Of a stretch of DNA of 19,497 nucleotides, positions 1-11,691 are shown in pieces (the stretch's first letter is position 1; the number at the start of each line of letters is the position of its first letter). A program made the position numbers and the translations under genes. A model generated the notes under the pieces. It had not been told where the DNA came from, did no database searches, and saw nothing but the letters and a program-made list of their open reading frames with translations. This DNA is from a virus: UHGV virus genome UHGV-0127427, one strand, 5' to 3'.

Positions 1-1
1 T

Positions 2-1693
2 ACGATTTTTTCCGAATTCTGCGGTTCCCCCGACATCCATCATCTGACGTTGCCATGGACACCAGCCAGTGTCGCACAGCGTAACGGTCGCGGTGCCCGA
101 GTTGGCTCCAACCGTGCAAGCGTTCGCGTTCATTACTACTGCGGCAAGGGTTCTTTCGATGAATACCGACTGAAGACGCTGAAGCGTAAAGCAGGCTGGA
201 TCTCCGATATCCTCCGTTCAGATAAGTCAGAAATGGAGAACGCCGACGCCAACGATATGATCGAAATGCAGATGTATACCGCTAAGGATGATGGCGAACG
301 TCTGGCAATGATGCAGGTTCAAATGGATAAGGCGAAAGCCGCGCAACGCGCCCGCCAGAAAGAACAGGCCGCTATCGACCTTCAGAACTACATCAAGGCG
401 CAACATGCAGCTGGCGAGGATGTTGCGGCTCTTACCGCTGAATTAGAGCGAAGTAAAGCGGAACTTGAAAAGACCACCGCCGAGGTAGCTAAATTCAAAC
501 AGGCGGTAATGGCCAAAGCAGCTGATAATGCAGACTGGAAGGCCCGCTGGGGTAGCGTCCATCACACAGACCGTACGTTGTTAGCACATTATCGCGCGTC
601 GTTGAAAAGCGCCATTCAGCGCAAGGCTAATATCACTCAAGCCATCTCCCGCTATGAGAAATTATTGAACCGTACTCAGAAGGCCGCGACGGATATCAAA
701 CGCCTGCGCCCGCTGGTGGAGGATGCAATAAATAAAGGCATTCTGGATGTTGATCCTGATCTGGTTAACCATGCGAATGAGTTCCTTGTTATCGGCGATC
801 GCTCATGGCGTGTAGGCCAATACTACGATTGTGCCGGTGATATCGTTCGCATTAAGTCGCTGGACTTCGACAGCCAGCGCGCAGACGTGGAGATCATCTT
901 TACCTTCAAAGGCACCAAATCGGGTAACTGGGATGTGAAGACGCTGGATAAACAGGTGGATGTAACTCCCGATGAAGATGCTGTTATGCAGAAAATCAGT
1001 GGTGGCGTCTCCATCGCCGGGATTAACGACATCATTTCCTGTGACGATTTCTACCGTTTCCAGCAGCGCGGCATGATCAAAATCACTGACTCATACGGCG
1101 TTCAGACTACAGAGTCAGGCTATAGCATTGATTTTGTTGGTACCTATACGGACCCACTGAAGCATGCGGTTTACCCGGATCGCCGTGACGGCGCGCTGAA
1201 GTCGTCAATTGCAAAATGGGTGCTTGGTATGATGTCGGAAGGGAATAACCGCCAGGTCCGTTTGGCAGAAGTATTCCTGACTGAACTGTTTGGCTCCAAT
1301 TATGGCGAAGTAATCGCGTCATACGGAGATACGCTATCCCCTGAAGCAATTCAGGAGAAAATAGCGGATGCGATCGCCAGAATGCCGGAGAAAACAAGCC
1401 AGGGGGCTACTCGTAACGGGGATTCTGAACTTGAGGTCACCAATGCCATTTTCGGTACCCATGAGTTCCGGGCGTCAGATTATGAGATCACCACAGCACA
1501 GTTTGGCACCATTGGCATTTACAGCAATAAAGACGAGATCAAGCAGGCAATGGACGCTGCAAGCGCGCGTATTGCAGCAGAACGGAAAGCCAATCTGAAT
1601 CATGCAGTCGCCGCGCTGACTCAATCGTGGGTAACAGCAATCAGGGAGGCCGCCACCACAGGGAAATCACACCGGCAATTGCGGATGTCGTAA
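2..1693 (+). CDS. darB: DarB-like protein, C-terminal ~560 aa (5' end lies outside the window)
   Basis: Reading frame is open from base 2 to the stop at 1691-1693 (the track's start at 50 is a TTG inside the open frame). A helicase motif VI-like QRNGRGAR lies near the visible N-terminus. Followed in the same orientation by ulx- and lxc-like genes as in P1. Assignment is by synteny and motif, not homology search. Confidence 0.5.
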   Translation, partial: TIFSEFCGSPDIHHLTLPWTPASVAQRNGRGARVGSNRASVRVHYYCGKGSFDEYRLKTLKRKAGWISDILRSDKSEMENADANDMIEMQMYTAKDDGERLAMMQVQMDKAKAAQRARQKEQAAIDLQNYIKAQHAAGEDVAALTAELERSKAELEKTTAEVAKFKQAVMAKAADNADWKARWGSVHHTDRTLLAHYRASLKSAIQRKANITQAISRYEKLLNRTQKAATDIKRLRPLVEDAINKGILDVDPDLVNHANEFLVIGDRSWRVGQYYDCAGDIVRIKSLDFDSQRADVEIIFTFKGTKSGNWDVKTLDKQVDVTPDEDAVMQKISGGVSIAGINDIISCDDFYRFQQRGMIKITDSYGVQTTESGYSIDFVGTYTDPLKHAVYPDRRDGALKSSIAKWVLGMMSEGNNRQVRLAEVFLTELFGSNYGEVIASYGDTLSPEAIQEKIADAIARMPEKTSQGATRNGDSELEVTNAIFGTHEFRASDYEITTAQFGTIGIYSNKDEIKQAMDAASARIAAERKANLNHAVAALTQSWVTAIREAATTGKSHRQLRMS

Positions 1694-1710
1694 ACGACGG
1701 CTCTAAATTT

Positions 1711-2322
1711 ATGGATGCCTATCAAATGGATGCGGTGCAGTTGCCATCAGCCTATGGGCAACTCAGCTATCGCATGACCTACAACCTGGTATCAATGTTT
1801 TCCGACCTTGCCATCCTTGGGCTGGTGGACCTTAACGAGGTTACGCCGGAATTGCTTAGCATGCGCAAGAATCATGTTGAGATATTGCAGAGAATTAACA
1901 CGGTTCTTGCCGGGCGCACCGATGAAGAGAAACAGGCCGACGCTGATCGGATAAACCTGGCCCTAGGCAACATCACGGAGGAAGAAATTGCCGCCAGAAA
2001 CGAGAAACAAGAAGAGTTATCATCAATACAGGGTGATGCCACCAGCATAGCTCAGTCTCTTGGTCTGAATTATCGCGTATCCACCGCCGACCTGAAGATG
2101 ATGTACGCACCAAAATTCGCAGCTGGTGAGGTATTTGGGCTTCAGGAGGCGTCCGGCATGAAAGGCGTTCTTTTCCGTGCTAAAGACGCAATCAAGGAAA
2201 AATTCGGCGCTCGCTGGCTGCCAGCGAAGGCGAAGAACAGCGATTTCCCGGGCAACTGGTGGATTATCGAGACAAAACACAACGTGGCGGACGTTCTGGC
2301 CGTCATCCAACAATACGCATAA
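1711..2322 (+). CDS. hypothetical protein (203 aa from ATG 1711; the ORF extends up to GTG 1627, overlapping the darB-like stop in another frame)
   Basis: Long ORF with protein-like composition, same strand as flanking genes, ATG 18 nt after the upstream stop; no strong Shine-Dalgarno. Could alternatively be a frameshifted continuation of the upstream gene. Confidence 0.45.
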   Translation: MDAYQMDAVQLPSAYGQLSYRMTYNLVSMFSDLAILGLVDLNEVTPELLSMRKNHVEILQRINTVLAGRTDEEKQADADRINLALGNITEEEIAARNEKQEELSSIQGDATSIAQSLGLNYRVSTADLKMMYAPKFAAGEVFGLQEASGMKGVLFRAKDAIKEKFGARWLPAKAKNSDFPGNWWIIETKHNVADVLAVIQQYA

Positions 2323-2355
2323 CAGGAGCGCCCGGTTCGCCGGGCGTCGCATAAT

Positions 2356-2796
2356 ATGGCCACACTATCTGATACAATAAAACCGAATAAAACATATCTT
2401 GAGGCGGTACTCCGTACAGCGTTGTTAGGAAAGACAGAAGACGAATACGTTGATTTCTTCCTGTCAGGGCTACGCGGGCGATTACTGAAAAATCCCCGCC
2501 TGTACCGCAGCTATGGCCCATACTGGCCGGAAATTAAAAAATTATTACTGGAGCGCGGTTATGGTAATTTCGGTCGTCTCGTTGACCGTGACGTTCGCAA
2601 ATTTTACCGTTATGACCGCCCGGCGCTAACACTCATAGCCGCGACGCTCTACAGCCAGGAGCGTTTTGATAATGGTCAGATATACTCAGCCTGGCATTTA
2701 CTGCCAGTCCCTGAAGAAGTTGACGACCAGGACTATGAGTTTGAGTCTTACGATTTGGAAGTTGAAGCCTTGGCACAGGCTGGAGAGAAAACTTGA
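2356..2796 (+). CDS. ulx: Ulx-like protein (gene upstream of lxc), 146 aa
   Basis: ATG-initiated ORF whose stop TGA (2794-2796) overlaps the TTG start of the downstream 82-aa lxc-like gene; position matches P1 ulx. Positional assignment only. Confidence 0.5.
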   Translation: MATLSDTIKPNKTYLEAVLRTALLGKTEDEYVDFFLSGLRGRLLKNPRLYRSYGPYWPEIKKLLLERGYGNFGRLVDRDVRKFYRYDRPALTLIAATLYSQERFDNGQIYSAWHLLPVPEEVDDQDYEFESYDLEVEALAQAGEKT

Positions 2797-3041
2797 AAAA
2801 GCGATACTACACAGTAAAGCATGGGACGCTACGAGCATTACAAGAGTTTGCTGACAAGCATAACGTTGAGGTGCGCAGGGAAGGGGGAAGTAAAGCTCTG
2901 CGCATGTACCGTCCGGACGGGAAATGGCGGACGGTCGTCGATTTCAAAACAAACAGCGTTCCCCAGGGCGTCCGCGACCGGGCATTCGAAGAATGGGAGC
3001 AGATCATCATAGATAATGCTCTGCTACTAAATGCTGACTGA
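2793..3041 (+). CDS. lxc: Lxc/Bof-like C1 co-repressor, 82 aa, TTG start
   Basis: 82-aa ORF (the size I recall for P1 Bof/Lxc) beginning with TTG 6 nt downstream of GGAGA, overlapping the upstream stop (TTGA); no in-frame ATG until codon 38. Confidence 0.6.
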   Translation: MKKRYYTVKHGTLRALQEFADKHNVEVRREGGSKALRMYRPDGKWRTVVDFKTNSVPQGVRDRAFEEWEQIIIDNALLLNAD

Positions 3042-3300
3042 GTTTAATATTACAATATTATCTGGGAGATAAATGCATCTTATTTCCCAGATGATAACTG
3101 ATGTTTTACATATTCACATGGTGTACAATTATAATACTGCCTAAATAGGCACACAAAGTACGATATGCTACTAAAACCACAACTTTTTGATACTTGTTTG
3201 AGGGGGCGGGTTTGCTTTAGTAATTTAATAGCAAAAGCCATTCGTGTATCAAGTAATAACTTACTGAAGGAGGTGTTTTCTAATAAGAGTTTTTTCTTTA

Positions 3301-3801
3301 TTAAACTCTCACTATGTATAGATAATCAGTTAAGTCTCTTAGTTTCCAATGTTTAGATACATCTGAAAGAAATATGCTGCGTACTTTCCCTGAGAAAGTA
3401 GGCATACCAGACTTAAGAAAAGCTCTAAGGTTGTCAACATCACTAAAAATTGAAAGTAATGAAAAAGTTAAAGCATCCTTAAAATCAGGATGTATATGAT
3501 TCTGGTCACTTATATTATCGATCATCCTGATTAATAAATCAGGATAAGCAAAAGACTTTTTTAGCAAATGTGGGCATTTATCCAGAAGTTGCTTCCCTTG
3601 GTGATTGTGACAAGATAAATAGTTTCTTACAGCACTATCATTAAGTTCGAATTCGATATATTTATCTGAATAGGTTTGTAAGAATTCGCGTTCAGAATGT
3701 TTAAGCAACAGCACATCACCATAATTTAATATTAAGAAATCCTTAAGAAATTGAAAATTTATCGGTTTCTTTATAAGGATGAAGTAACAGACTCCTGACA
3801 T
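3301..3801 (-). CDS. hypothetical protein, orphan gene in the AT-rich island (start ATG 3801 preferred; ORF extends to ATG 3813)
   Basis: 166-170 aa ORF in strongly AT-rich DNA; GGTGG lies 5 nt upstream of ATG 3801; no motif recognised. Confidence 0.4.
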   Translation of the reverse strand: MSGVCYFILIKKPINFQFLKDFLILNYGDVLLLKHSEREFLQTYSDKYIEFELNDSAVRNYLSCHNHQGKQLLDKCPHLLKKSFAYPDLLIRMIDNISDQNHIHPDFKDALTFSLLSIFSDVDNLRAFLKSGMPTFSGKVRSIFLSDVSKHWKLRDLTDYLYIVRV

Positions 3802-4035
3802 AGCTACCACCATTCTAAAGAGGCTTTGAACAAGAATAGAGATACAGCAGCACTGAAATCAAGAAGTTGTGCAAAAAATAAAAATATTGATTTGTGTCAT
3901 AGTTGCTGCTTTTTATTATTTAATTTTTATCAATTTCACTACAGATAAATAAATTGACATAGTGTGTAACCCCTGTAAATATAAAGGGCACTTTATCTGC
4001 TAAAGCCAACCAATTTAAAAATAGAGGGTGGGAGC

Positions 4036-4726
4036 ATGGAAGTTATCTACATAGTAGAACCAATCATTTCCACAAGCACTAACAAGTTGATAGCAGTGGA
4101 AGTGTTGAGCAGATTTTATTCCAACGAGGGGGGCTATTCTTTCTACTCAGAAAGTATTAGGTATGTTTACAAGCAAGATGAAGATTAACTTGCTAAAATC
4201 TCAACTTAACACAATAATCAAATATAAGTATTTTTTTGAATGCCATAATATATTATGCTCTATCAATGTAGATTATGATACCTGTTTATATATATATGGC
4301 AATAAACAAATTCAAGAACTACTAATAAACAATAAATTTATAGCGATTGAGATATCAGAAAACTATCCTGATTTAAGCGATGAGGATTACATCATATCCT
4401 TTCTACTGACTTTGACAGATAATGTTTGGCTTGATGATTTTGGAAGTGGTAACGCCACCATGAAAGCATTAATTAAAAATAAATATCATGCAATAAAACT
4501 TGATAAGTCATTTTTTCAAGAGCATATGATTAAGCCTCATTTTGATGTCATTATTAGCAATTTAAAAAAGTTATGTCCGAATATCATCGCTGAAGGCGTC
4601 GAAAACATTGATTGTCATAAGTTATCAAAAGGGATAGGGCTATGGGGCACTCAGGGATATTTTTTCCCATCAATTCCGCTGACGGAGATTGAGTCCATAG
4701 ATAGTAAGTGGCTATCAGATTTATGA
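4036..4726 (+). pseudogene. EAL-domain gene (degenerate EAL-only type) split by a frameshift: frame 1 4036-4188 (50 aa, EVL motif), frame 2 4163-4726 (187 aa)
   Basis: Frame 1 starts at ATG 4036 behind GAGGGTGGGAGC and encodes the EAL-type N-terminus (EPIISTSTNKLIAVEVLSRF). Frame 2 carries the remaining EAL signatures in canonical order: DDFGSGNATMKAL (DDFGTG), IKLDKSFF (KIDRSF), IAEGVE, QGYFFPSIP (QGYLFSRP). The two frames overlap around a G6 run at 4128-4133. Confidence 0.55.
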
Positions 4727-4779
4727 GATGCAGAGAGTTAGGATATTGATATGAACATCTAAGCACCTCATTACTGTGC

Positions 4780-5232
4780 TTAAAAGATGTTATCCTTACC
4801 TGTTAATTTACCTTGAGGAACTTTAGTGAGCTCCATCCGATAAAATGCTTTTATCATATTTACAAATGGCTCATATGGTGAATATTCGTTGTCTTGTTTA
4901 GTAACGGTGTCTGTCATTGTCCTGATGTAGTCTGCGCTTACCACGTTGTTGTTTGCTTCAATTAGTACCGGCCTGCCGTTCATGAAGGGATCACGCAACC
5001 TTACACGCTGGCCAACTCGACCGGTAATAAAGCTGTTTTCCTCTTCCACCAGCACGATAAAACCCTTTTCCTCTTTTTCTCGCAATTCGCGCAGCAGCTG
5101 GAGTTCCATATCGCGGCGGCGTTCAGGGTAGCTGGTCCGCTCAGCCATTATCAGCTCATTGTTGATCCATGCAGCAGTCATTGACGCCGGTTTGCCGACG
5201 CTCATTGAAACAACGCATATTTTCTTATCCAT
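4780..5232 (-). CDS. mat: Mat-like protein (P1 mat position), 150 aa from ATG 5232
   Basis: ORF between ref and the island; ATG at 5232 preceded by GGGG; the track start at 5259 is a non-ATG upstream codon. Positional assignment. Confidence 0.45.
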   Translation of the reverse strand: MDKKICVVSMSVGKPASMTAAWINNELIMAERTSYPERRRDMELQLLRELREKEEKGFIVLVEEENSFITGRVGQRVRLRDPFMNGRPVLIEANNNVVSADYIRTMTDTVTKQDNEYSPYEPFVNMIKAFYRMELTKVPQGKLTGKDNIF

Positions 5233-5243
5233 AGCGCCCCTAC

Positions 5244-5269
5244 AAAAAAGAAAAGCCACCAGCGGCGGC
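5244..5269 (-). terminator. intrinsic terminator-like hairpin plus U-run downstream of ref, ending 11 nt upstream of the mat start
   Basis: Minus-strand sense GCCGCC-GCU-GGUGGC (6-bp stem including one G.U) followed by UUUUCUUUUUU. Confidence 0.45.
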
Positions 5270-5420
5270 TTAGCAATACAACTGAAGGTAGCGCCCGGTA
5301 CTCAGACTGTGCCGTCCATGGAATATTTGAAAGGGGATCCATCCGTACCGGGCATGTGATGATTCTGACTGAAGTCACTTGTCAGTTGTCAATCATTTAT
5401 CATTAAAAATAATATATTTA

Positions 5421-5981
5421 TTAGTGCATGATGTTTGCCATCTCATAGGCGTCAGCCAGTAACTCCATCTCTGACTTGTTCAGCAGGGTGAATTCTTTCT
5501 TGCCTCCAACCACACCATCGGCATGAACAGGGACCAGCCAGGGGTATTTTGCTCTTACTTCAGCCGGAGCTGCATGCTGGTGGTGCCATCTACAAAGAGG
5601 CAATTGCTTTTTATGACAACCCGGCGCGGTACGACCGGCGATATGGTGCAGAGACATCTCATTAGATATTACTCCATGCATATAGCAGGCAATGCAGGGG
5701 AGAGTGCCAAGAGCATTGGCGATGCGCCGTTCCTCCGCCGTTGGTGTTCTCCCCTTCAAGCCACGAGATTTTATTTTTACCGCGCTTTTCCGCGTTTTGC
5801 TGGCTGGTGGGCGCTCTTTCTGTTTAGCGATACGGCGGTCGAGAGTATCCCGCATTTTCTGATATTGAGATTCTCGCCAGACCGGATCAGCCAACTTCTC
5901 CCGTTGCCGAGCGATCGCTCGTTCTCTGGCTGCCTTCTGCCACTTGCGGCACTGTTCAATTTTTTGTTCGATTGTTTTCAT
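5421..5981 (-). CDS. ref: Ref, recombination enhancement function (HNH-family endonuclease), 186 aa
   Basis: 186-aa ORF starting MKTIEQKIEQCRKWQK with Cys/His-rich HNH core (CIACYMHG...HH...CHKKQLPLCRWHH); matches P1 Ref as I recall it; located between mat and cra/cre as in P1. Confidence 0.9.
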   Translation of the reverse strand: MKTIEQKIEQCRKWQKAARERAIARQREKLADPVWRESQYQKMRDTLDRRIAKQKERPPASKTRKSAVKIKSRGLKGRTPTAEERRIANALGTLPCIACYMHGVISNEMSLHHIAGRTAPGCHKKQLPLCRWHHQHAAPAEVRAKYPWLVPVHADGVVGGKKEFTLLNKSEMELLADAYEMANIMH

Positions 5982-5985
5982 ATGG

Positions 5986-6014
5986 CAAAAAAAAAAGGCG
6001 GCCTAATGGCCGCC
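5986..6014 (-). terminator. intrinsic terminator / attenuator-like hairpin (7-bp GC stem, 4-nt loop) plus U10, 5 nt upstream of the ref ATG
   Basis: Minus-strand sense GGCGGCC-AUUA-GGCCGCC followed by ten U, then GCCAU-AUG(ref). Confidence 0.5.
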
Positions 6015-6081
6015 AATGATGTCAAGGAGTGAAGTAATGGCAACGTCTTCGTAGTTGACAAAAACTGCGGCTCAATTATAG

Positions 6082-6098
6082 CGATATATTAGAGCAAT
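6082..6098 (-). promoter_or_regulatory. C1 operator-like site (Op2-type) overlapping a candidate ref promoter
   Basis: Minus-strand sense ATTGCTCTAATATAT (14/17 to ATTGCTCTAATAAATTT) directly followed by CGC and a perfect TATAAT, about 90 bp upstream of ref. Confidence 0.65.
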
Positions 6099-6204
6099 GA
6101 TAGATATTTTGTTTATCGCTAATCACATTTTTTCACTTCAGTACCTGTGTGCTATACTCCTTCTTGATTGATTGGATGCGGAATACAAACCCGCTCTTTT
6201 GTGC

Positions 6205-6232
6205 AGCCTGGCTCCTTGCCAGGCTTTTTTTT
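6205..6232 (+). terminator. plus-strand intrinsic terminator (AGCCUGGC-UCCUU-GCCAGGCU followed by U8)
   Basis: 8-bp GC-rich stem, 5-nt loop and a run of 8 T on the plus strand; no plus-strand CDS upstream, so it probably ends a short non-coding transcript. Confidence 0.5.
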
Positions 6233-6542
6233 ATTTCATCATGGAAGTTGTTAACGCTTTGGACCTTGCTGAACTGATTGAGAGGGCTTTGTCAACGTGC
6301 CCCAAAAATTCGCCAAACTCAGACATCACTTTAGCAAAACCGCGCCGTGCTTCTTCCTCGGTGGCATTCATCACGAAATGTTCAGCACCACGCATACTTT
6401 TGACAGGGAACGCAACGGATATTGAATCAATATCAGGCATTCTATCGCTCAGCTTTACAGTGACAATGACGGCTGGCGACTGAATATTAGTGCTTACAGA
6501 CAGCACTACATATTTTCCGTCGATGTTGAAATCCTTTCTCAC
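6231..6542 (-). CDS. Cra-like hypothetical protein (cre-associated position); start uncertain (GTG 6542 or ATG 6440)
   Basis: ORF immediately downstream of cre on the same strand with protein-like composition (EEEARRGFAKVMSEFGEFLGHVDKAL); no strong RBS at either start. Confidence 0.4.
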   Translation of the reverse strand: MRKDFNIDGKYVVLSVSTNIQSPAVIVTVKLSDRMPDIDSISVAFPVKSMRGAEHFVMNATEEEARRGFAKVMSEFGEFLGHVDKALSISSARSKALTTSMMK

Positions 6543-6558
6543 ATGTCACCATAAATAT

Positions 6559-6575
6559 CAAAGAATTAGAGCAAT
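6559..6575 (-). promoter_or_regulatory. C1 operator-like site in the cre-cra intergenic region
   Basis: Minus-strand sense ATTGCTCTAATTCTTTG (13/17 to consensus; first 11 positions perfect). Confidence 0.5.
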
Positions 6576-6592
6576 CATTTACGCGTTAATGG

Positions 6593-7624
6593 CTAATCGC
6601 CATCTTCCAGAAGGCGCACCATTGCCCCTGTTTCACTATCCAGGTTACGGATATAGTTCATGACAATATTTACGTTGGTCCAGCCACCAGCTTGCATGAT
6701 CTCCGGTATTGAAACTCCGGCACGGGCCATATCTCGCGCGGCTCCGACACGGGCACTGTGTCCAGACCAGGCCAGGTACCTCTGGCCAGAGTCATCCTTA
6801 GCCCCGTAAATCAATCGGTGAGTTGCTTCAAAAATCCCTTCCAGGGCGCGAGTTGATAGCTGGCTGGTGGGTGATGGCGAGGCAACACCATTTTTTCTGA
6901 CCCGGCAAAACAAGTAGTTATTCGGATCATCAGCCACACCAGAGACAGAAATCCATCGTTCGACCAGTTTAGTTACCCCCAGGCTAAGTGCCTTCTCTAC
7001 ACCCGCGGTACTAACCAGAGTTTTCGTTCTGCCAATATGGATTAGCATTCTCCCACCGTCTGTACGTGAGATATCTTTAACCCTGATCCTGGCAATTTCG
7101 GCTATACGTAACAGGGTGTTATAAGCGATCCCCAGAAATGCCAGATTACGTATATCCTGGCAGCGATCGCTATTTTCCATGAGTGAACGAACCTGGTCGA
7201 AATCAGTGCGTTCGAACGCCAATGCCTGTTTTGCACGTTCACCGGCATCAACGTTTTCTTTTCGAATCCGCCGCATGACCAGTGAAACAGCATTGCTGTC
7301 ACTTGGTCGTGGCAGCCCGGACCGACGATGAAGCATGTTTAGCTGGCCCAAATGTTGCTGGATAGTTTTTACTGCCAGACCGCGCGCCTGAAGATATAGA
7401 AGATAATCGCGAACATCTTCAGGTTCTGCGGGAAACCACTTCCGGTTATTCAACTTGCACCATGCCGCCCACGACCGGCAAACGGACAGAAGCATTTTCC
7501 AGGTATGCTCAGAAAACGCCTGGCGATCCCTGAACATGTCCATCAGGTTCTTGCGAACCTCATCACTCGTTGCATCGACCGGTAATGCAGGCAAATTTTG
7601 GTGTACGGTCAGTAAATTGGACAT
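6593..7624 (-). CDS. cre: Cre site-specific tyrosine recombinase, 343 aa
   Basis: 343-aa ORF starting MSNLLTVHQNLPALPVDATSDEVRKNLMDMFRDRQAFSEHTWKMLLSVCRSWAAWCKLNNRKWFPAEPEDVRDYLLYLQARGLAVKTIQQHLGQLNMLHRRSGLPRPSDSNAVSLVMRRIRKENVDAGERAKQALAFERTDFDQVRSLMENSDRCQDIRNLAFLGIAYNTLLRIAEIARIRVKDISRTDGGRMLIHIGRTKTLVSTAGVEKALSLGVTKLVERWISVSGVADDPNNYLFCRVRKNGVASPSPTSQLSTRALEGIFEATHRLIYGAKDDSGQRYLAWSGHSARVGAARDMARAGVSIPEIMQAGGWTNVNIVMNYIRNLDSETGAMVRLLEDGD, near-identical to P1 Cre as recalled; loxP lies 419 bp upstream. Confidence 0.97.
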   Translation of the reverse strand: MSNLLTVHQNLPALPVDATSDEVRKNLMDMFRDRQAFSEHTWKMLLSVCRSWAAWCKLNNRKWFPAEPEDVRDYLLYLQARGLAVKTIQQHLGQLNMLHRRSGLPRPSDSNAVSLVMRRIRKENVDAGERAKQALAFERTDFDQVRSLMENSDRCQDIRNLAFLGIAYNTLLRIAEIARIRVKDISRTDGGRMLIHIGRTKTLVSTAGVEKALSLGVTKLVERWISVSGVADDPNNYLFCRVRKNGVASPSPTSQLSTRALEGIFEATHRLIYGAKDDSGQRYLAWSGHSARVGAARDMARAGVSIPEIMQAGGWTNVNIVMNYIRNLDSETGAMVRLLEDGD

Positions 7625-7631
7625 TTAACAC

Positions 7632-7853
7632 TCAGACAATAGTTTTAAGTAAAGTGTACAGGATTGGCTCTGCCTTTACCTGTTTATGGTTCTCGTCATA
7701 GAAACGCCAGCGACCGCGCGTGCGTTCTATTTTCTCTTCACCGCGCGATAATGACAGTTGGCAACTATCACGATCAAACCCTTTTGCCCGCCAGTAACCA
7801 CGGTTTTTCTCAAGCTCAAGATGAGTGGACACTTTAGCAGCTGAATATCCCAT
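7632..7853 (-). CDS. hypothetical 73-aa protein immediately upstream of cre
   Basis: ATG 7853 preceded by GAGGTG at 4-nt spacing; stop 7 nt before the cre ATG; basic protein (MGYSAAKVSTHLELEKNRGYWRAKGFDRD...). Not a P1 gene I can name. Confidence 0.4.
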   Translation of the reverse strand: MGYSAAKVSTHLELEKNRGYWRAKGFDRDSCQLSLSRGEEKIERTRGRWRFYDENHKQVKAEPILYTLLKTIV

Positions 7854-7950
7854 TTTTCACCTCTGATTGATTGGTGGTGCTAAGTGCGCTACGCGAAATC
7901 TGGAGCACTAACACTGCCAACATTTCGCAGATTTTACGTAGCGCAACCTT

Positions 7951-8023
7951 GATCAAATGATCAAGTGATCACTATTTGACCTGATAAGGTATTGAACTGT
8001 ATGGATTTACAGGTAAATTGATC
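7951..8023. promoter_or_regulatory. GATC (Dam site) cluster in the cre upstream regulatory region
   Basis: Four GATC within 73 bp (7951-7954, 7959-7962, 7967-7970, 8020-8023) between cre and loxP; consistent with the methylation-sensitive cre promoters described for P1. Confidence 0.55.
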
Positions 8024-8042
8024 ATGTTCAATAACCCTTAAG

Positions 8043-8076
8043 ATAACTTCGTATAATGTATGCTATACGAAGTTAT
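8043..8076 (-). other. loxP: loxP recombination site (34 bp: 13-bp inverted repeats flanking an 8-bp spacer)
   Basis: Exact ATAACTTCGTATA-ATGTATGC-TATACGAAGTTAT; spacer is the reverse complement of GCATACAT, so the site is inverted relative to the plus strand. Confidence 0.97.
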
Positions 8077-8119
8077 CAGGTCCGAAGAGGAGTTTACGTC
8101 CAGCTGCGCACAAAAATCA

Positions 8120-8136
8120 AGAATTATTAGAGCAAT
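8120..8136 (-). promoter_or_regulatory. C1 operator (Op99-type) in immC
   Basis: Minus-strand sense ATTGCTCTAATAATTCT (15/17). Confidence 0.6.
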
Positions 8137-8196
8137 AAATTTTGAGAGAAAAATCCCACTCCACCAGCTAAAAACTGGATTGTTTTTCATAGTTGT

Positions 8197-8223
8197 TTGA
8201 CAATTGCTCTAATAAATTATAGT
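8197..8223 (+). promoter_or_regulatory. Candidate immC promoter with embedded C1 operator (TTGACA - operator - TATAGT)
   Basis: TTGACA 8197-8202, operator ATTGCTCTAATAAATTA 8203-8219 (16/17), TATAGT 8218-8223; upstream of coi-c1 on the same strand. Confidence 0.65.
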
Positions 8224-8457
8224 TTTGCCGCCGTTACGTAATACGACTTTGGATTCACTATTTAATGTGTCTTCAGCGTTGTAGAGCGGCTCAGAAGGAA
8301 ATGAGCAAACAGGGAAACCTTATACAATGGCATTACAGCTATGCATTGCTCATCTTACACACAGCGCAATGTTGTTAGATTACCCCAGCATGGATCATGG
8401 GTGAAACAGTAGGTCAGAGCTTCAGGCTCTGTGTTGTCAATACAGTGAGGCATAATT

Positions 8458-8667
8458 ATGGCTTTCATTCAACCAACCATCGACGACGTTAGACATTGCT
8501 CTAACGCTTTATCTGTAGACCCTGCCGAAACCGACGCTGCCAGCACCATTGCTGAACACTACTCAAAGATATCCAATCAGGACTACCGCATCACCCAAGA
8601 CGACCTGGATGACCTCACTGACACAATCGAATATCTCATGGCAACTAACCAGTTAGCCTCACAATAA
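8458..8667 (+). CDS. coi: Coi, C1 inactivator, 69 aa
   Basis: 69-aa acidic ORF directly upstream of c1 on the same strand (MAFIQPTIDDVRHCSNALSVD...); size and position match P1 Coi; GTGAGG 7 nt upstream of the ATG. Confidence 0.85.
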   Translation: MAFIQPTIDDVRHCSNALSVDPAETDAASTIAEHYSKISNQDYRITQDDLDDLTDTIEYLMATNQLASQ

Positions 8668-8777
8668 ATGCACTAATAAATCTATTATTTTTGTTTGATC
8701 CCTCTATAATATAGGTCAGTAATGACCGGTTTTCTCAACCGGGCGTTATTGACCATGTCAATTCTGGAGGAGGATCA

Positions 8778-9629
8778 ATGATAAATTATGTCTACGGCGA
8801 ACAACTGTACCAGGAGTTCGTCAGCTTCAGGGATCTCTTTCTAAAAAAAGCTGTTGCACGCGCCCAACACGTTGATGCCGCCAGCGACGGTCGTCCTGTT
8901 CGCCCGGTTGTCGTTCTGCCGTTCAAAGAAACGGACAGCATTCAGGCTGAAATTGATAAATGGACTTTAATGGCGCGGGAACTGGAACAGTACCCAGACC
9001 TCAATATCCCAAAGACTATTTTATATCCAGTGCCTAACATCCTTCGCGGTGTACGTAAGGTTACAACTTATCAGACAGAAGCTGTGAACAGCGTCAACAT
9101 GACCGCTGGCCGCATTATTCATCTGATTGATAAGGATATTCGCATCCAAAAAAGCGCGGGGTTCAATGAGCACAGTGCGAAATACATAGAGAACCTGGAA
9201 GCAACAAAAGAGCTAATGAAGCAGTACCCGGAGGATGAAAAATTCCGTATGCGCGTACACGGCTTTAGCGAAACAATGCTGCGCGTCCACTACATTTCCA
9301 GTAGCCCTAACTACAATGATGGTAAATCAGTTAGTTACCATGTGCCACTGTGTGGCGTGTTTATCTGCGATGAAACCCTCCGTGATGGAATCATCATCAA
9401 CGGTGAATTCGAGAAAGCAAAATTTAGCCTTTATGACTCCATAGAACCGATCATCTGCGACCGCTGGCCGCAGGCAAAAATATATCGCCTGGCAGATATT
9501 GAAAATGTAAAAAAACAAATTGCCATCACTCGCGAAGAGAAAAAGGTCAAATCAGCCGCATCAGTTACGCGCAGTCGTAAAACTAAGAAGGGGCAGCCAG
9601 TAAACGACAACCCCGAAAGCGCGCAATAA
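8778..9629 (+). CDS. c1: C1 repressor of lysis, 283 aa
   Basis: 283-aa ORF starting MINYVYGEQLYQEFVSFRDLF behind GGAGGAGG; matches P1 C1 in length and N-terminus as recalled; multiple cognate operators in the window. Confidence 0.95.
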   Translation: MINYVYGEQLYQEFVSFRDLFLKKAVARAQHVDAASDGRPVRPVVVLPFKETDSIQAEIDKWTLMARELEQYPDLNIPKTILYPVPNILRGVRKVTTYQTEAVNSVNMTAGRIIHLIDKDIRIQKSAGFNEHSAKYIENLEATKELMKQYPEDEKFRMRVHGFSETMLRVHYISSSPNYNDGKSVSYHVPLCGVFICDETLRDGIIINGEFEKAKFSLYDSIEPIICDRWPQAKIYRLADIENVKKQIAITREEKKVKSAASVTRSRKTKKGQPVNDNPESAQ

Positions 9630-9632
9630 ATT

Positions 9633-9654
9633 ATGCCCGGCATCAACCGGGCAT
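9633..9654. terminator. hairpin between convergent c1 and the antirepressor-like gene (possible bidirectional terminator)
   Basis: ATGCCCGG-CATCAA-CCGGGCAT, 8-bp stem, 4 nt after the c1 stop; flanks are only moderately T-rich. Confidence 0.45.
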
Positions 9655-9661
9655 TCTTCCA

Positions 9662-10429
9662 TTATTCAGCCGCCACCGGTTTTAACAAGCCAGCATCGAG
9701 CAGTTTACGCGTCAACCACTGTTGTCCTTTCCCCGTTAATTGGGGCGTCAGCCGTATCTGGTAGCCATCTTCATCATCCAGCACCACTTCTTTCACTGTG
9801 AAATATCCGGCGTTTATGTACTGCTGGAACGGCACATTTTTACGCCCGCCGGACGCTATCAGAATGCCGTTCTCCCGTAACCAGGCAAACAGCGCGTTTT
9901 GCTTCAGCCCAACAACCTTTGCAAAATTACCAATCAGGATCCCCTTAGCCACTGATACACGGTCGGCAAAATCGACCTTGGGGGCTGCGGCCACCAGTTG
10001 TTGATTTAGCTGGTGGGCCTTCTGTTCCAGTAGCTGCTTTTGTTCAGCCAGCTCGGCAGCCAGGCGCAAGGCTTCAGGTAGTGTTTGGGGGATTGCGACC
10101 GGTTGCTGTTCTTTTTGCCGGAAGTAGCTGTCTTCCAGTTTTTCAAAGAATGCCCATGCTTCATCTGTGTTTACGATCTTAGACATGCGTGCCGCTCCGC
10201 GTTCGGCCCAAAGAATTACCTGGCTTGTATATTTGCTAACCAGGTGACTAGTAGTCACCAGCCTTTTAAATTCCTTTAATTTTGAACCAGTTAAGAGATA
10301 GTAATGCTTACCTTCTTCAAAGCGATCGGAGTTGCGAGACAAATTTTTACGAATATTAGCTTCATCGGTTCCATAAGCGCAGATAAACATCGCGCTTATC
10401 GACATCCAGATGCGGGTATTCCTTTTCAA
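9662..10429 (-). CDS. phage antirepressor-like protein (ORF6N-type N-terminal region plus KilA-C/ANT-type C-terminal region); start uncertain (TTG 10429 or ATG 10405)
   Basis: N-terminal half AYGTDEANIRKNLSRNSDRFEEGKHYYLLTGSKLKEF...ILWAERGAARMSK and C-terminal half DRVSVAKGILIGNFAKVVGLKQNALFAWLRENGILIASGGRKNVPFQQYINAGYF are typical of phage antirepressors; sits where P1 has pacB/pacA/lpa. Confidence 0.65.
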   Translation of the reverse strand: MKRNTRIWMSISAMFICAYGTDEANIRKNLSRNSDRFEEGKHYYLLTGSKLKEFKRLVTTSHLVSKYTSQVILWAERGAARMSKIVNTDEAWAFFEKLEDSYFRQKEQQPVAIPQTLPEALRLAAELAEQKQLLEQKAHQLNQQLVAAAPKVDFADRVSVAKGILIGNFAKVVGLKQNALFAWLRENGILIASGGRKNVPFQQYINAGYFTVKEVVLDDEDGYQIRLTPQLTGKGQQWLTRKLLDAGLLKPVAAE

Positions 10430-10556
10430 GAATTGCTGCGAGTTCTTTCGCTGATAGAAGAGATTTAGTGCGGATCATGTAATCCGCAATCTCGTACGAT
10501 GTTATTCGTGAGTGATTTATTTCCATGAAGTGGCGTCCCTGCCAGTTAAGTAACAT
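10362..10556 (-). CDS. hypothetical 64-aa protein overlapping the 5' end of the antirepressor-like gene in another frame
   Basis: ATG 10556 preceded by AGGTGA at 4-nt spacing; ends within the first codons of the antirepressor ORF; could be a real leader gene or the product of a frameshift. Confidence 0.35.
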   Translation of the reverse strand: MLLNWQGRHFMEINHSRITSYEIADYMIRTKSLLSAKELAAILEKEYPHLDVDKRDVYLRLWNR

Positions 10557-10626
10557 CCTGTCACCTACTGATTAGCCCATGTCAACTAATCAACGTCGAA
10601 TATAATACCCTCGATTAAAGAAATAG

Positions 10627-10643
10627 CAATACATTAGAGCAAT
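10627..10643 (-). promoter_or_regulatory. C1 operator-like site upstream of the 64-aa/antirepressor unit
   Basis: Minus-strand sense ATTGCTCTAATGTATTG (14/17) beginning 1 nt after the pdcB-like stop; TTGCTA-16 bp-TATTAT promoter-like hexamers overlap it. Confidence 0.55.
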
Positions 10644-10644
10644 T

Positions 10645-11691
10645 TTATCTAACGCTCGACGAATGACTTGTGATAGCGCCGACTCCAAGCGCGTAATCAA
10701 AGAACAATCGTTGATGCATCGCCAGCCTACCGTGCGTCTTCTCCCAATTATCGCGGTCACGCTCAATATCACGCTGGCATGACTGGCACAGAGGAATAGC
10801 ATAAATGTCATGCGCGCATAATCGACTATAACGAACGATATAAGGCGTAATGTGAGCGCCAGCTCCCGCCGCTCCACACCCACAGCATGGACGGGAAGCA
10901 ACAAAGTCCATGTACTCAGGTAATTTTAGCGATTGCAGTTTTGGTATTTTGAAATGCGCCATACCTGGGTCGGAGTCAACATCCACAGGGCATACTTTTG
11001 CACGCATCGGCGCGGCGCGTTCTTCCATCATCTGAACATATGCTGTAGCGCGATCGTCATACGGGCGAATATCCGCCTCTTTCAGTGGTCCGCTATCCTG
11101 CGGAGTAGCCTTCATCTTATTTATTATTGATATGCGGCAGACTTCTTCCGGCATCAGGTGCATCATGTTGCGCATGAAAGCCCACCAGCACAGCTCCTGA
11201 ATACTTAAATCATGGCTATTTGAAAGGCCCATTTCCTGACGGGCGACATCCAGTATCCAGTTAACGCGATTATTGTGCAGCGTTTCTTTCAGCTCATTAA
11301 AACCACGCATCCGGTAATGGTTATCGTGATGCCAGCACAACAACACCGCGCTATTGTCTCGTTCAGCGTGGACAATATGGTTGTCACACCAACTACGATC
11401 TGCGGCCTGGCATTGACCCTCTTTCCTACGCAACCACGCCACCAGCGCGTCAATTCCACCAATACGGCGAAACAGTTCATCGCTGTTAAAAAACGGCTGC
11501 AACGCCTCATTTGTTGCCATGGTTTGCTCGGTAACAACGAGGCCGTCTTCCATGTGCTCGATTAACTCACGCGGCACCGGCTCCATAATAAATTTACGGC
11601 CAGCCTCCACCAGCTTTCTGACCTCCTGATCCACTTTGAACGTGGCGAGGCCAAGCTCTTTCTGTACAAAGGGAGTAATTACGGCTTTCAC
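10645..11691 (-). CDS. pdcB: PdcB-like protein (post-doc gene B position), 348 aa, GTG start, Cys-rich C-terminal region
   Basis: GTG 11691 preceded by AAGGTG at 4 nt; C-terminal CCGCG...C..C..C..C cluster suggests metal binding; assignment by position downstream of doc. Confidence 0.5.

Follow-up and report, generated by a model that had tools for sequence, protein, structure and literature searches.

A heritable one-base insertion in a G tract splits a stand-alone EAL gene in a lineage of Escherichia coli P1-like phage-plasmids and probably marks an ordinary pseudogene

In the virus genome UHGV-0127427, a stand-alone EAL gene carries a heritable G5→G6 insertion, and the gene is likely (roughly 85%) to be an ordinary pseudogene, that is, a fixed loss-of-function allele. 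The stretch of DNA analyzed is 19,497 nucleotides long and is referred to here as the window. A previous sequence-only reading of it had left three explanations for the split gene, namely a pseudogene, a homopolymer sequencing error or a slipped-strand phase-variable switch. The pseudogene is favored: repair by one G gives an intact protein, no G5 copy was found in the lineage carrying G6 together with a second indel (A3), and one lineage member, contig L042, has acquired a second lesion.

The ORFs at 4036-4188 (ORF1) and 4163-4726 (ORF2) are two pieces of one frameshifted EAL gene. Their placement in different frames around a G6 tract at 4128-4133 had been claimed earlier, and every coordinate proved correct, as did the expectation that a change of one G would fuse them into an EAL protein of about 230 aa. 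With one G removed, the two pieces join in a 229-aa ORF whose product is identical to WP_069067574.1 from plasmid pMRE162. The DNA aligns to that plasmid with 0 mismatches over 3814-4960, the extra G being the single gap. Alignment of the fused translation to the Pfam EAL profile (PF00563), a check that the same reading had proposed, gave 63.7 bits (cutoff 31.3) over residues 8-210. ORF2 alone scored 43 bits and covered profile positions 113-233 only, and ORF1 alone gave no Pfam EAL match.

ORF1 consists of 32 native residues followed by 18 out-of-frame codons and a TAA stop, and its native part holds E8-P9 and the catalytic motif E22-V-L-x-R26. ORF2, which is without the EVL glutamate, holds N77, E105/E108, DDFGSG 133-138, K154, EGVE 186-189 and QG 206-207; the same 187-aa ORF is annotated by PGAP in NCTC11129. 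No single polypeptide encoded by the window holds the full catalytic set, with E22 and R26 on ORF1 and all of the other residues on ORF2. Judging by this domain architecture, neither product is predicted to be an active c-di-GMP phosphodiesterase, which would make the EAL gene a pseudogene in this plasmid lineage. The additional G may have arisen by replication slippage at the short homopolymer. The insertion cuts off residues 1-42, which include the EVL catalytic glutamate and the beginning of the barrel, from the remaining domain, and the frameshifted allele might persist because its E. coli hosts can do without the gene or exert weak selection on it. In a simple promoter scan, the region upstream of 4036 showed no convincing sigma-70 site; a terminator was not found either.

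Table 1. Features in and around the split EAL gene (window coordinates), with the alleles and G6 backgrounds of the gene in public sequences
Feature	Position	Strand	Remarks
A3 run (A4 in relatives)	1664..1666	+	puts the darB-like helicase gene out of frame; lineage marker inherited together with G6
AraC-type HTH regulator gene	3080..3813	-	divergent to EAL; frameshifted by loss of 1 bp between 3313 and 3314
Shine-Dalgarno-like GAGGGTGGGAG	4024..4034	+	putative; just 5' of the 4036 ATG, the native start of all homologs
ORF1, EAL N-terminal fragment	4036-4188	+	frame 1; 50 aa; opens with MEVIYIVEPIISTSTNKLIAVEVLSRFYSNEG
G6 homopolymer	4128..4133	+	window reads TCCAACGAGGGGGGCTATTC; G5 in the intact allele, codons GAG GGG GCT = E31 G32 A33; one added G shifts the frame
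ORF2, EAL remainder	4163-4726	+	frame 2; 187 aa = native residues 43-229
T7 run, second frameshift hot spot	4231..4237	+	intact in the window; T8 elsewhere
(TA)5 repeat, third frameshift hot spot	4287..4296	+	intact in the window; (TA)4 and (TA)6 elsewhere
Intact allele			229-aa forms; 482 + 656 contigs, plus minor variants
T8 allele			67-aa product; 359 contigs
(TA)4 allele			88-aa product; 93 contigs
G6 allele			50-aa product; 32 contigs
(TA)6 allele			96-aa product; 5 contigs
G7 allele			40-aa product; 2 contigs
G6 background 1			window lineage; 4222A, 4649A, darB A3
G6 background 2			NCTC11129/L034 chromosomal remnant; 4222G, 4649G, AraC gene intact and separated from EAL by IS5
G6 background 3			L037; 3906T, 4649G, darB A4, L012-like haplotype

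The frequency of the two tract lengths was assessed with an 86-nt segment centered on the G tract, which was run against each collection. An exact G6 match was returned by one of the 115 complete E. coli records with the segment, the NCTC11129 chromosome, and the one-gap (G5) form by 113 of them, with an 85-nt span in all of the matches listed. A synthetic G5 probe matched exactly in 89 complete records, and the others listed carry SNPs. The same 86-nt probe found G6 in none of 112 PLSDB plasmids and in neither of two phages, and a gapped pattern scan found G5, and no G6, in all four IMG/VR contigs and all eight metagenome contigs. As G5 is the usual state of the tract, the intact 229-aa gene is the normal state.

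Comparison with pMRE162, at 99.9% identity, revealed just two indels in about 17 kb, G5→G6 in the EAL gene and A4→A3 in the darB-like helicase/anti-restriction gene. The latter splits the darB-like gene into ORFs at 50-1693 and 1726-2322, and adding one A restores a continuous reading frame of 757 codons. The A3 run was absent from 633 complete E. coli records. Look-ups of exact products located the 187-aa ORF2 product on 10 contigs, all with G6, and the 50-aa ORF1 product in 55 collection blocks, with G6 in every one of the contigs read (at least 24). At least 19 independent assemblies, of isolates and of gut metagenomes, have the G6 allele base for base; they come from unrelated NCBI drafts, Logan assemblies of SRA runs, ENA gut metagenomes and JGI. 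Positions 1-10726 of the window are 100% identical to the JGI 3300056507 contig Ga0250129_00393, from which this DNA probably comes, and over 6-10 kb other members of the lineage show 0-2 substitutions relative to the window.

The contigs with the ORF1 or ORF2 product that are long enough to be checked also carry darB A3. Conversely, the 198-aa product specific to darB A3 was found on 24 contigs, 23 of which include the EAL locus, and the tract is G6 in 23/23. The search of assembled contigs thus showed no tract-length polymorphism within the darB-A3 lineage and no contig combining A3 with G5, and every A4 contig in the G5 sample has G5. The G6 allele is real and is inherited in one clonal plasmid lineage. 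Within this lineage, L042 has an extra (TA)5→(TA)4 lesion inside the same EAL gene; lesions accumulate in dead genes rather than in toggled ones, so this second lesion fits decay after inactivation.

That the tract is a homopolymer sequencing or assembly error, with a true G5 sequence and an intact gene, was the initial suspicion, and several observations encouraged it: both indels relative to the 99.9% identical plasmid lie in homopolymers and break ORFs, the sole complete genome with G6 is a PacBio-era NCTC assembly, and one of the G6 contigs, L030 (GCA_019431085.1), has five homopolymer insertions within 760 bp. The suspicion was dropped once the exact-product look-ups returned many independent assemblies with G6. 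Errors would be scattered among the more than 230 G5 records, which is not what was observed. Instead, at least 19 independent samples and assemblers gave the same G6+A3 haplotype, contigs of short-read style and gut metagenomes among them. Recurrence across platforms and laboratories with perfect linkage to a second marker, which is not expected of an error, argues that G6 is not a sequencing artifact, and this explanation is now very improbable. The insertions in L030, and the dozens of 1-3 bp indels in the 760-bp EAL region of L051 (NZ_CP044294.1 34734-36616), are almost certainly uncorrected long-read error and contrast with the clean window. A slipped-strand switch, in which frequent length changes of the tract would turn the phosphodiesterase ON (G5) and OFF (G6), is considered improbable as well. 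G6 does occur on at least three SNP backgrounds, a G7 product exists on two contigs, and the T7 and (TA)5 repeats of the same gene also have recurrent frameshift alleles. Nevertheless, the tract is merely 5-6 nt long, it does not vary among the 23 lineage contigs with the locus, G5 is found in about 98% of the other copies in complete genomes, and the second-site lesion in L042 indicates that the OFF state is not being rescued. The diverged homologs P0005, P0008, P0011 and P0016 have no G run at the orthologous codons (AAT GGT GCT, GAT GGT GTC, ACT GGA GTT and AAT GGT ATG), so the tract is peculiar to one allele family and is not a conserved device. The repeat content is also as predicted from codon usage, with a G/C run of at least 5 arising in the EAL gene in 50% of synonymous-codon permutations and in 12% of mononucleotide shuffles; the window has ten G/C runs of at least 5, two of which are at least 6. 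An evolved contingency tract was rejected on the basis of tract length, non-conservation and the permutation test.

Two further readings would give the G6 allele a function. In one, the full-length protein would be made from G6 by a +1 shift of the ribosome or by slippage of transcription along the G run. A P-site tRNA-Gly could in principle re-pair on GGG-G, and low-level leakiness of homopolymers is known in general. Against this, no stop or rare (slow) codon and no stimulatory element or structure is evident after the run. More than 95% of relatives and all diverged homologs lack the frameshift and are in frame, so G6 is not a conserved recoding site, and recoding is extremely unlikely. In the other, the 187-aa ORF2 product would work in its truncated form, perhaps as a non-catalytic regulator like YdiV. 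Among solved structures, the nearest relatives are indeed the non-catalytic anti-FlhD4C2 proteins STM1697 and YdiV, and the FlhD-contact residues of STM1697, F160 and L173 (PMC5622320), align to F159 and I172, inside ORF2. F159 belongs to the general EAL KxDxxF motif, however, so this alignment is not diagnostic. ORF2 also lacks the first ~42 residues of the barrel, no convincing ribosome-binding site precedes 4163 in the sequence, no homolog has its natural start there, and L042 is further frameshifted inside ORF2. A functional ORF2 product is therefore highly unlikely, and the split gene is best read as a pseudogene.

The insertion is not unique to the window lineage. Flanking SNPs at 3906, 4222 and 4649 place G6 on three SNP backgrounds (Table 1), indicating that it arose at least three times, and a single origin spread by descent was ruled out by these backgrounds. 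Two other simple repeats of the gene are also hit; T8, for instance, was found in L002, L045, L046 and L050, on at least three haplotypes. Alleles were read in 40 of the 1040 cluster members, and allele counts were taken as the contigs with the exact product in a collection of 15 billion proteins. For T8, such counts of the truncated product replaced probing of complete genomes, in which nearby SNPs blur the identity bands. Very roughly 30% of the EAL gene copies are frameshifted, on contig counts that are redundant through repeated strains and duplicated sources. The simplest reading is that the present hosts exert weak selection on this EAL cargo gene and that the short repeats take the first loss-of-function mutations. 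A share of about 30% is more than expected for simple neutral decay of a useful gene, and selection favoring loss, or slow evolutionary on/off toggling, may play a part. On a bolder view, the AraC-EAL module would encode a catalytically intact sister of YdiV/STM1697, and loss at the three repeats would reflect selection and not neutral decay: gut E. coli would repeatedly gain from losing a phage-borne c-di-GMP/motility modulator, or would switch it on and off slowly and reversibly. This view appears unlikely.

The intact form of the gene is well conserved. Homologs that begin at the 4163 ATG without the upstream EVL segment, which the sequence-only reading had named as evidence against a split gene, were not found: in all of the full-length homologs (226-265 aa, identity down to 23%), the start is the 4036-type Met and the EVL segment is retained. 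E22, N77, E105, E108, D133, D134, K154, E186, E189 and Q206 are invariant in 16 homologs. The consensus of active EAL domains is EVLxR / N / ExxE / DDFGSG / KLDK / EGVE / QG (PMC5635171 supplement), and the intact allele has the whole set. Diverged members gave dN/dS values of 0.11-0.18, and the intact EAL family is under purifying selection. Together with the invariant catalytic set, this selection indicates that the loss in the window lineage is recent. The intact 229-aa protein is predicted from its motifs to be a c-di-GMP phosphodiesterase.

Among solved structures, the best matches were to STM1697 (5hxg, E = 1.6e-28) and YdiV (3tlq and 4es4, about 4e-19), both over the full length, ahead of PdeL/YahA (1e-8), and a Salmonella phage record annotates this EAL gene as 'ydiV'. 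SfaY was also a detectable homolog (P0026, E = 2.4e-8). The named accessory EAL proteins of E. coli (PdeU1-3, PdeX, PdeY and PdeT) were considered and rejected as identities, with PdeU differing in its motifs (EVLIR/DDFGTGYAT) and PdeY/SfaY being 24% identical. The matching PHROGs entry is a 229-position family of unknown function, and the literature search found no paper naming this EAL gene. One homolog of 236 aa (P0016, 46-50% identical; L056 1-6711) has fimbrial subunit genes on one side and a SPATE-type autotransporter on the other, a setting that echoes the fimbria-linked EAL gene sfaY/pdeY.

The EAL gene is paired with a divergent regulator gene of AraC type. PGAP flags this gene as frameshifted in all of the inspected annotations of G5 plasmid relatives, and the 1-bp deletion at 3313/3314 is present in the main plasmid clade, including the window. 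It is intact (240 aa) in the NCTC11129 remnant and in two IMG/VR contigs, and likewise intact, at 234-240 aa, in diverged AraC-EAL modules. AraC-EAL looks like a conserved two-gene module in which the regulator was lost first. Taking the AraC deletion and the EAL frameshift together, the whole module seems to be decaying in the main plasmid clade.

The EAL gene belongs to the accessory ('moron') cargo of an E. coli P1-like phage-plasmid and occupies its variable darB-ref slot. A 901-bp region matches 137 complete E. coli records, with 138 of the 142 places on plasmids, and the whole window aligns to P1-like phage-plasmids at 97-99.9%, the nearest complete relative being pMRE162. The gene order in the relatives is a DarB-like helicase, an Ulx-like anti-restriction gene (phrog_1629), a small ORF, the divergent AraC-type HTH gene and the EAL gene, followed by a hypothetical gene, Ref, a Cre-like integrase, the C1 repressor, a KilAC antirepressor and Phd/Doc. 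The locus is thus surrounded by a P1-type gene set, as judged from the annotations of 98-99.9% identical relatives and from Pfam tags.

In a related backbone (L039 3954-5081), a RelA/SpoT-domain gene replaces the AraC-EAL pair between the small anti-restriction genes and ref, which points to the slot as a cargo-exchange hot spot with different nucleotide-signaling genes. Positions 1-31 of the window form a junction at which the N-terminal part of darB has been replaced in this lineage. The replacing sequence ends with a 525-aa PAS/HAMP/MCP-signal (chemoreceptor-like) gene (L019 103-1680, L038 1-717), an unusual cargo for a P1-like element. The KilAC antirepressor gene (9662-10429, junction near 10375) is truncated or rearranged relative to full-length versions; an internal stop is annotated in pMRE162, and the gene is intact, with 370 aa, in FLI21. 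The state of this gene suggests that the element is a degenerating phage-plasmid. The chromosome of NCTC11129 holds a decayed P1-like remnant adjoining cytR (L007, NZ_LR134222.1 4748953-4755880), which comprises a darB fragment, an intact AraC gene, IS5, the G6 EAL gene, a frameshifted ref and a Cre-like integrase, with several flanking IS elements. NCTC11129 was rejected as the source of the window, because its locus is this chromosomal remnant interrupted by IS5 and its SNPs form another haplotype.

For annotation, 4036-4726 should be treated as one frameshifted pseudogene of a 229-aa EAL gene, and neither as two genes nor as an assembly error. The locus is a small, clean case of phage-plasmid accessory cargo decaying by slippage at short repeats. 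Linkage to a second lineage marker in public assemblies also offers a way of separating real homopolymer alleles from error without reads. The frameshift itself alters no current understanding; recurrent repeat-mediated loss and the biology of the AraC-EAL module are minor leads. The intact gene is of possible functional interest, as it encodes a conserved and apparently catalytic EAL protein that is paired with an AraC-type regulator and has anti-FlhD4C2 factors as its nearest solved relatives.

Classical contingency loci, such as the poly-G tracts of Neisseria, Haemophilus and Campylobacter, typically have at least 8 nt and are polymorphic among clonal isolates. The EAL gene shares with them a G run in a coding region whose length sets the reading frame. 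It differs in that its tract has 5 or 6 nt, is monomorphic in the lineage and is unconserved in homologs. Like STM1697 and YdiV/STM1344, the anti-FlhD4C2 proteins of Salmonella and E. coli, the phage-plasmid protein is stand-alone and about 230 aa long. STM1697 and YdiV neither bind nor hydrolyze c-di-GMP (PMC5622320). They have lost the DDFG and EGVE motifs (GDLGVG and GGQE in STM1697; GNLGAG and GGID in YdiV), whereas the phage-plasmid protein keeps DDFGSG, EGVE and ExxE. Since these active-site motifs are kept, membership of the degenerate YdiV/STM1697 family fails on its defining feature, and the protein is best described as an apparently catalytically intact relative of that clade. With the EAL domain of PdeL/YahA (4lj3) and with SfaY/PdeY, which represent minimal or stand-alone active EAL phosphodiesterases, it has in common the Pfam EAL domain and the complete set of catalytic motifs, but identity is 23-27%, and unlike them it is paired with a divergent AraC-type regulator and resides on P1-like phage-plasmids. 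Stop codons and frameshifts that truncate GGDEF/EAL genes are reported to be a common form of strain-to-strain variation in natural E. coli (PMC5635171). The single-base homopolymer indel in the window resembles such truncations of c-di-GMP turnover genes, and differs from them in affecting phage-plasmid cargo that is recurrently hit at three simple repeats.
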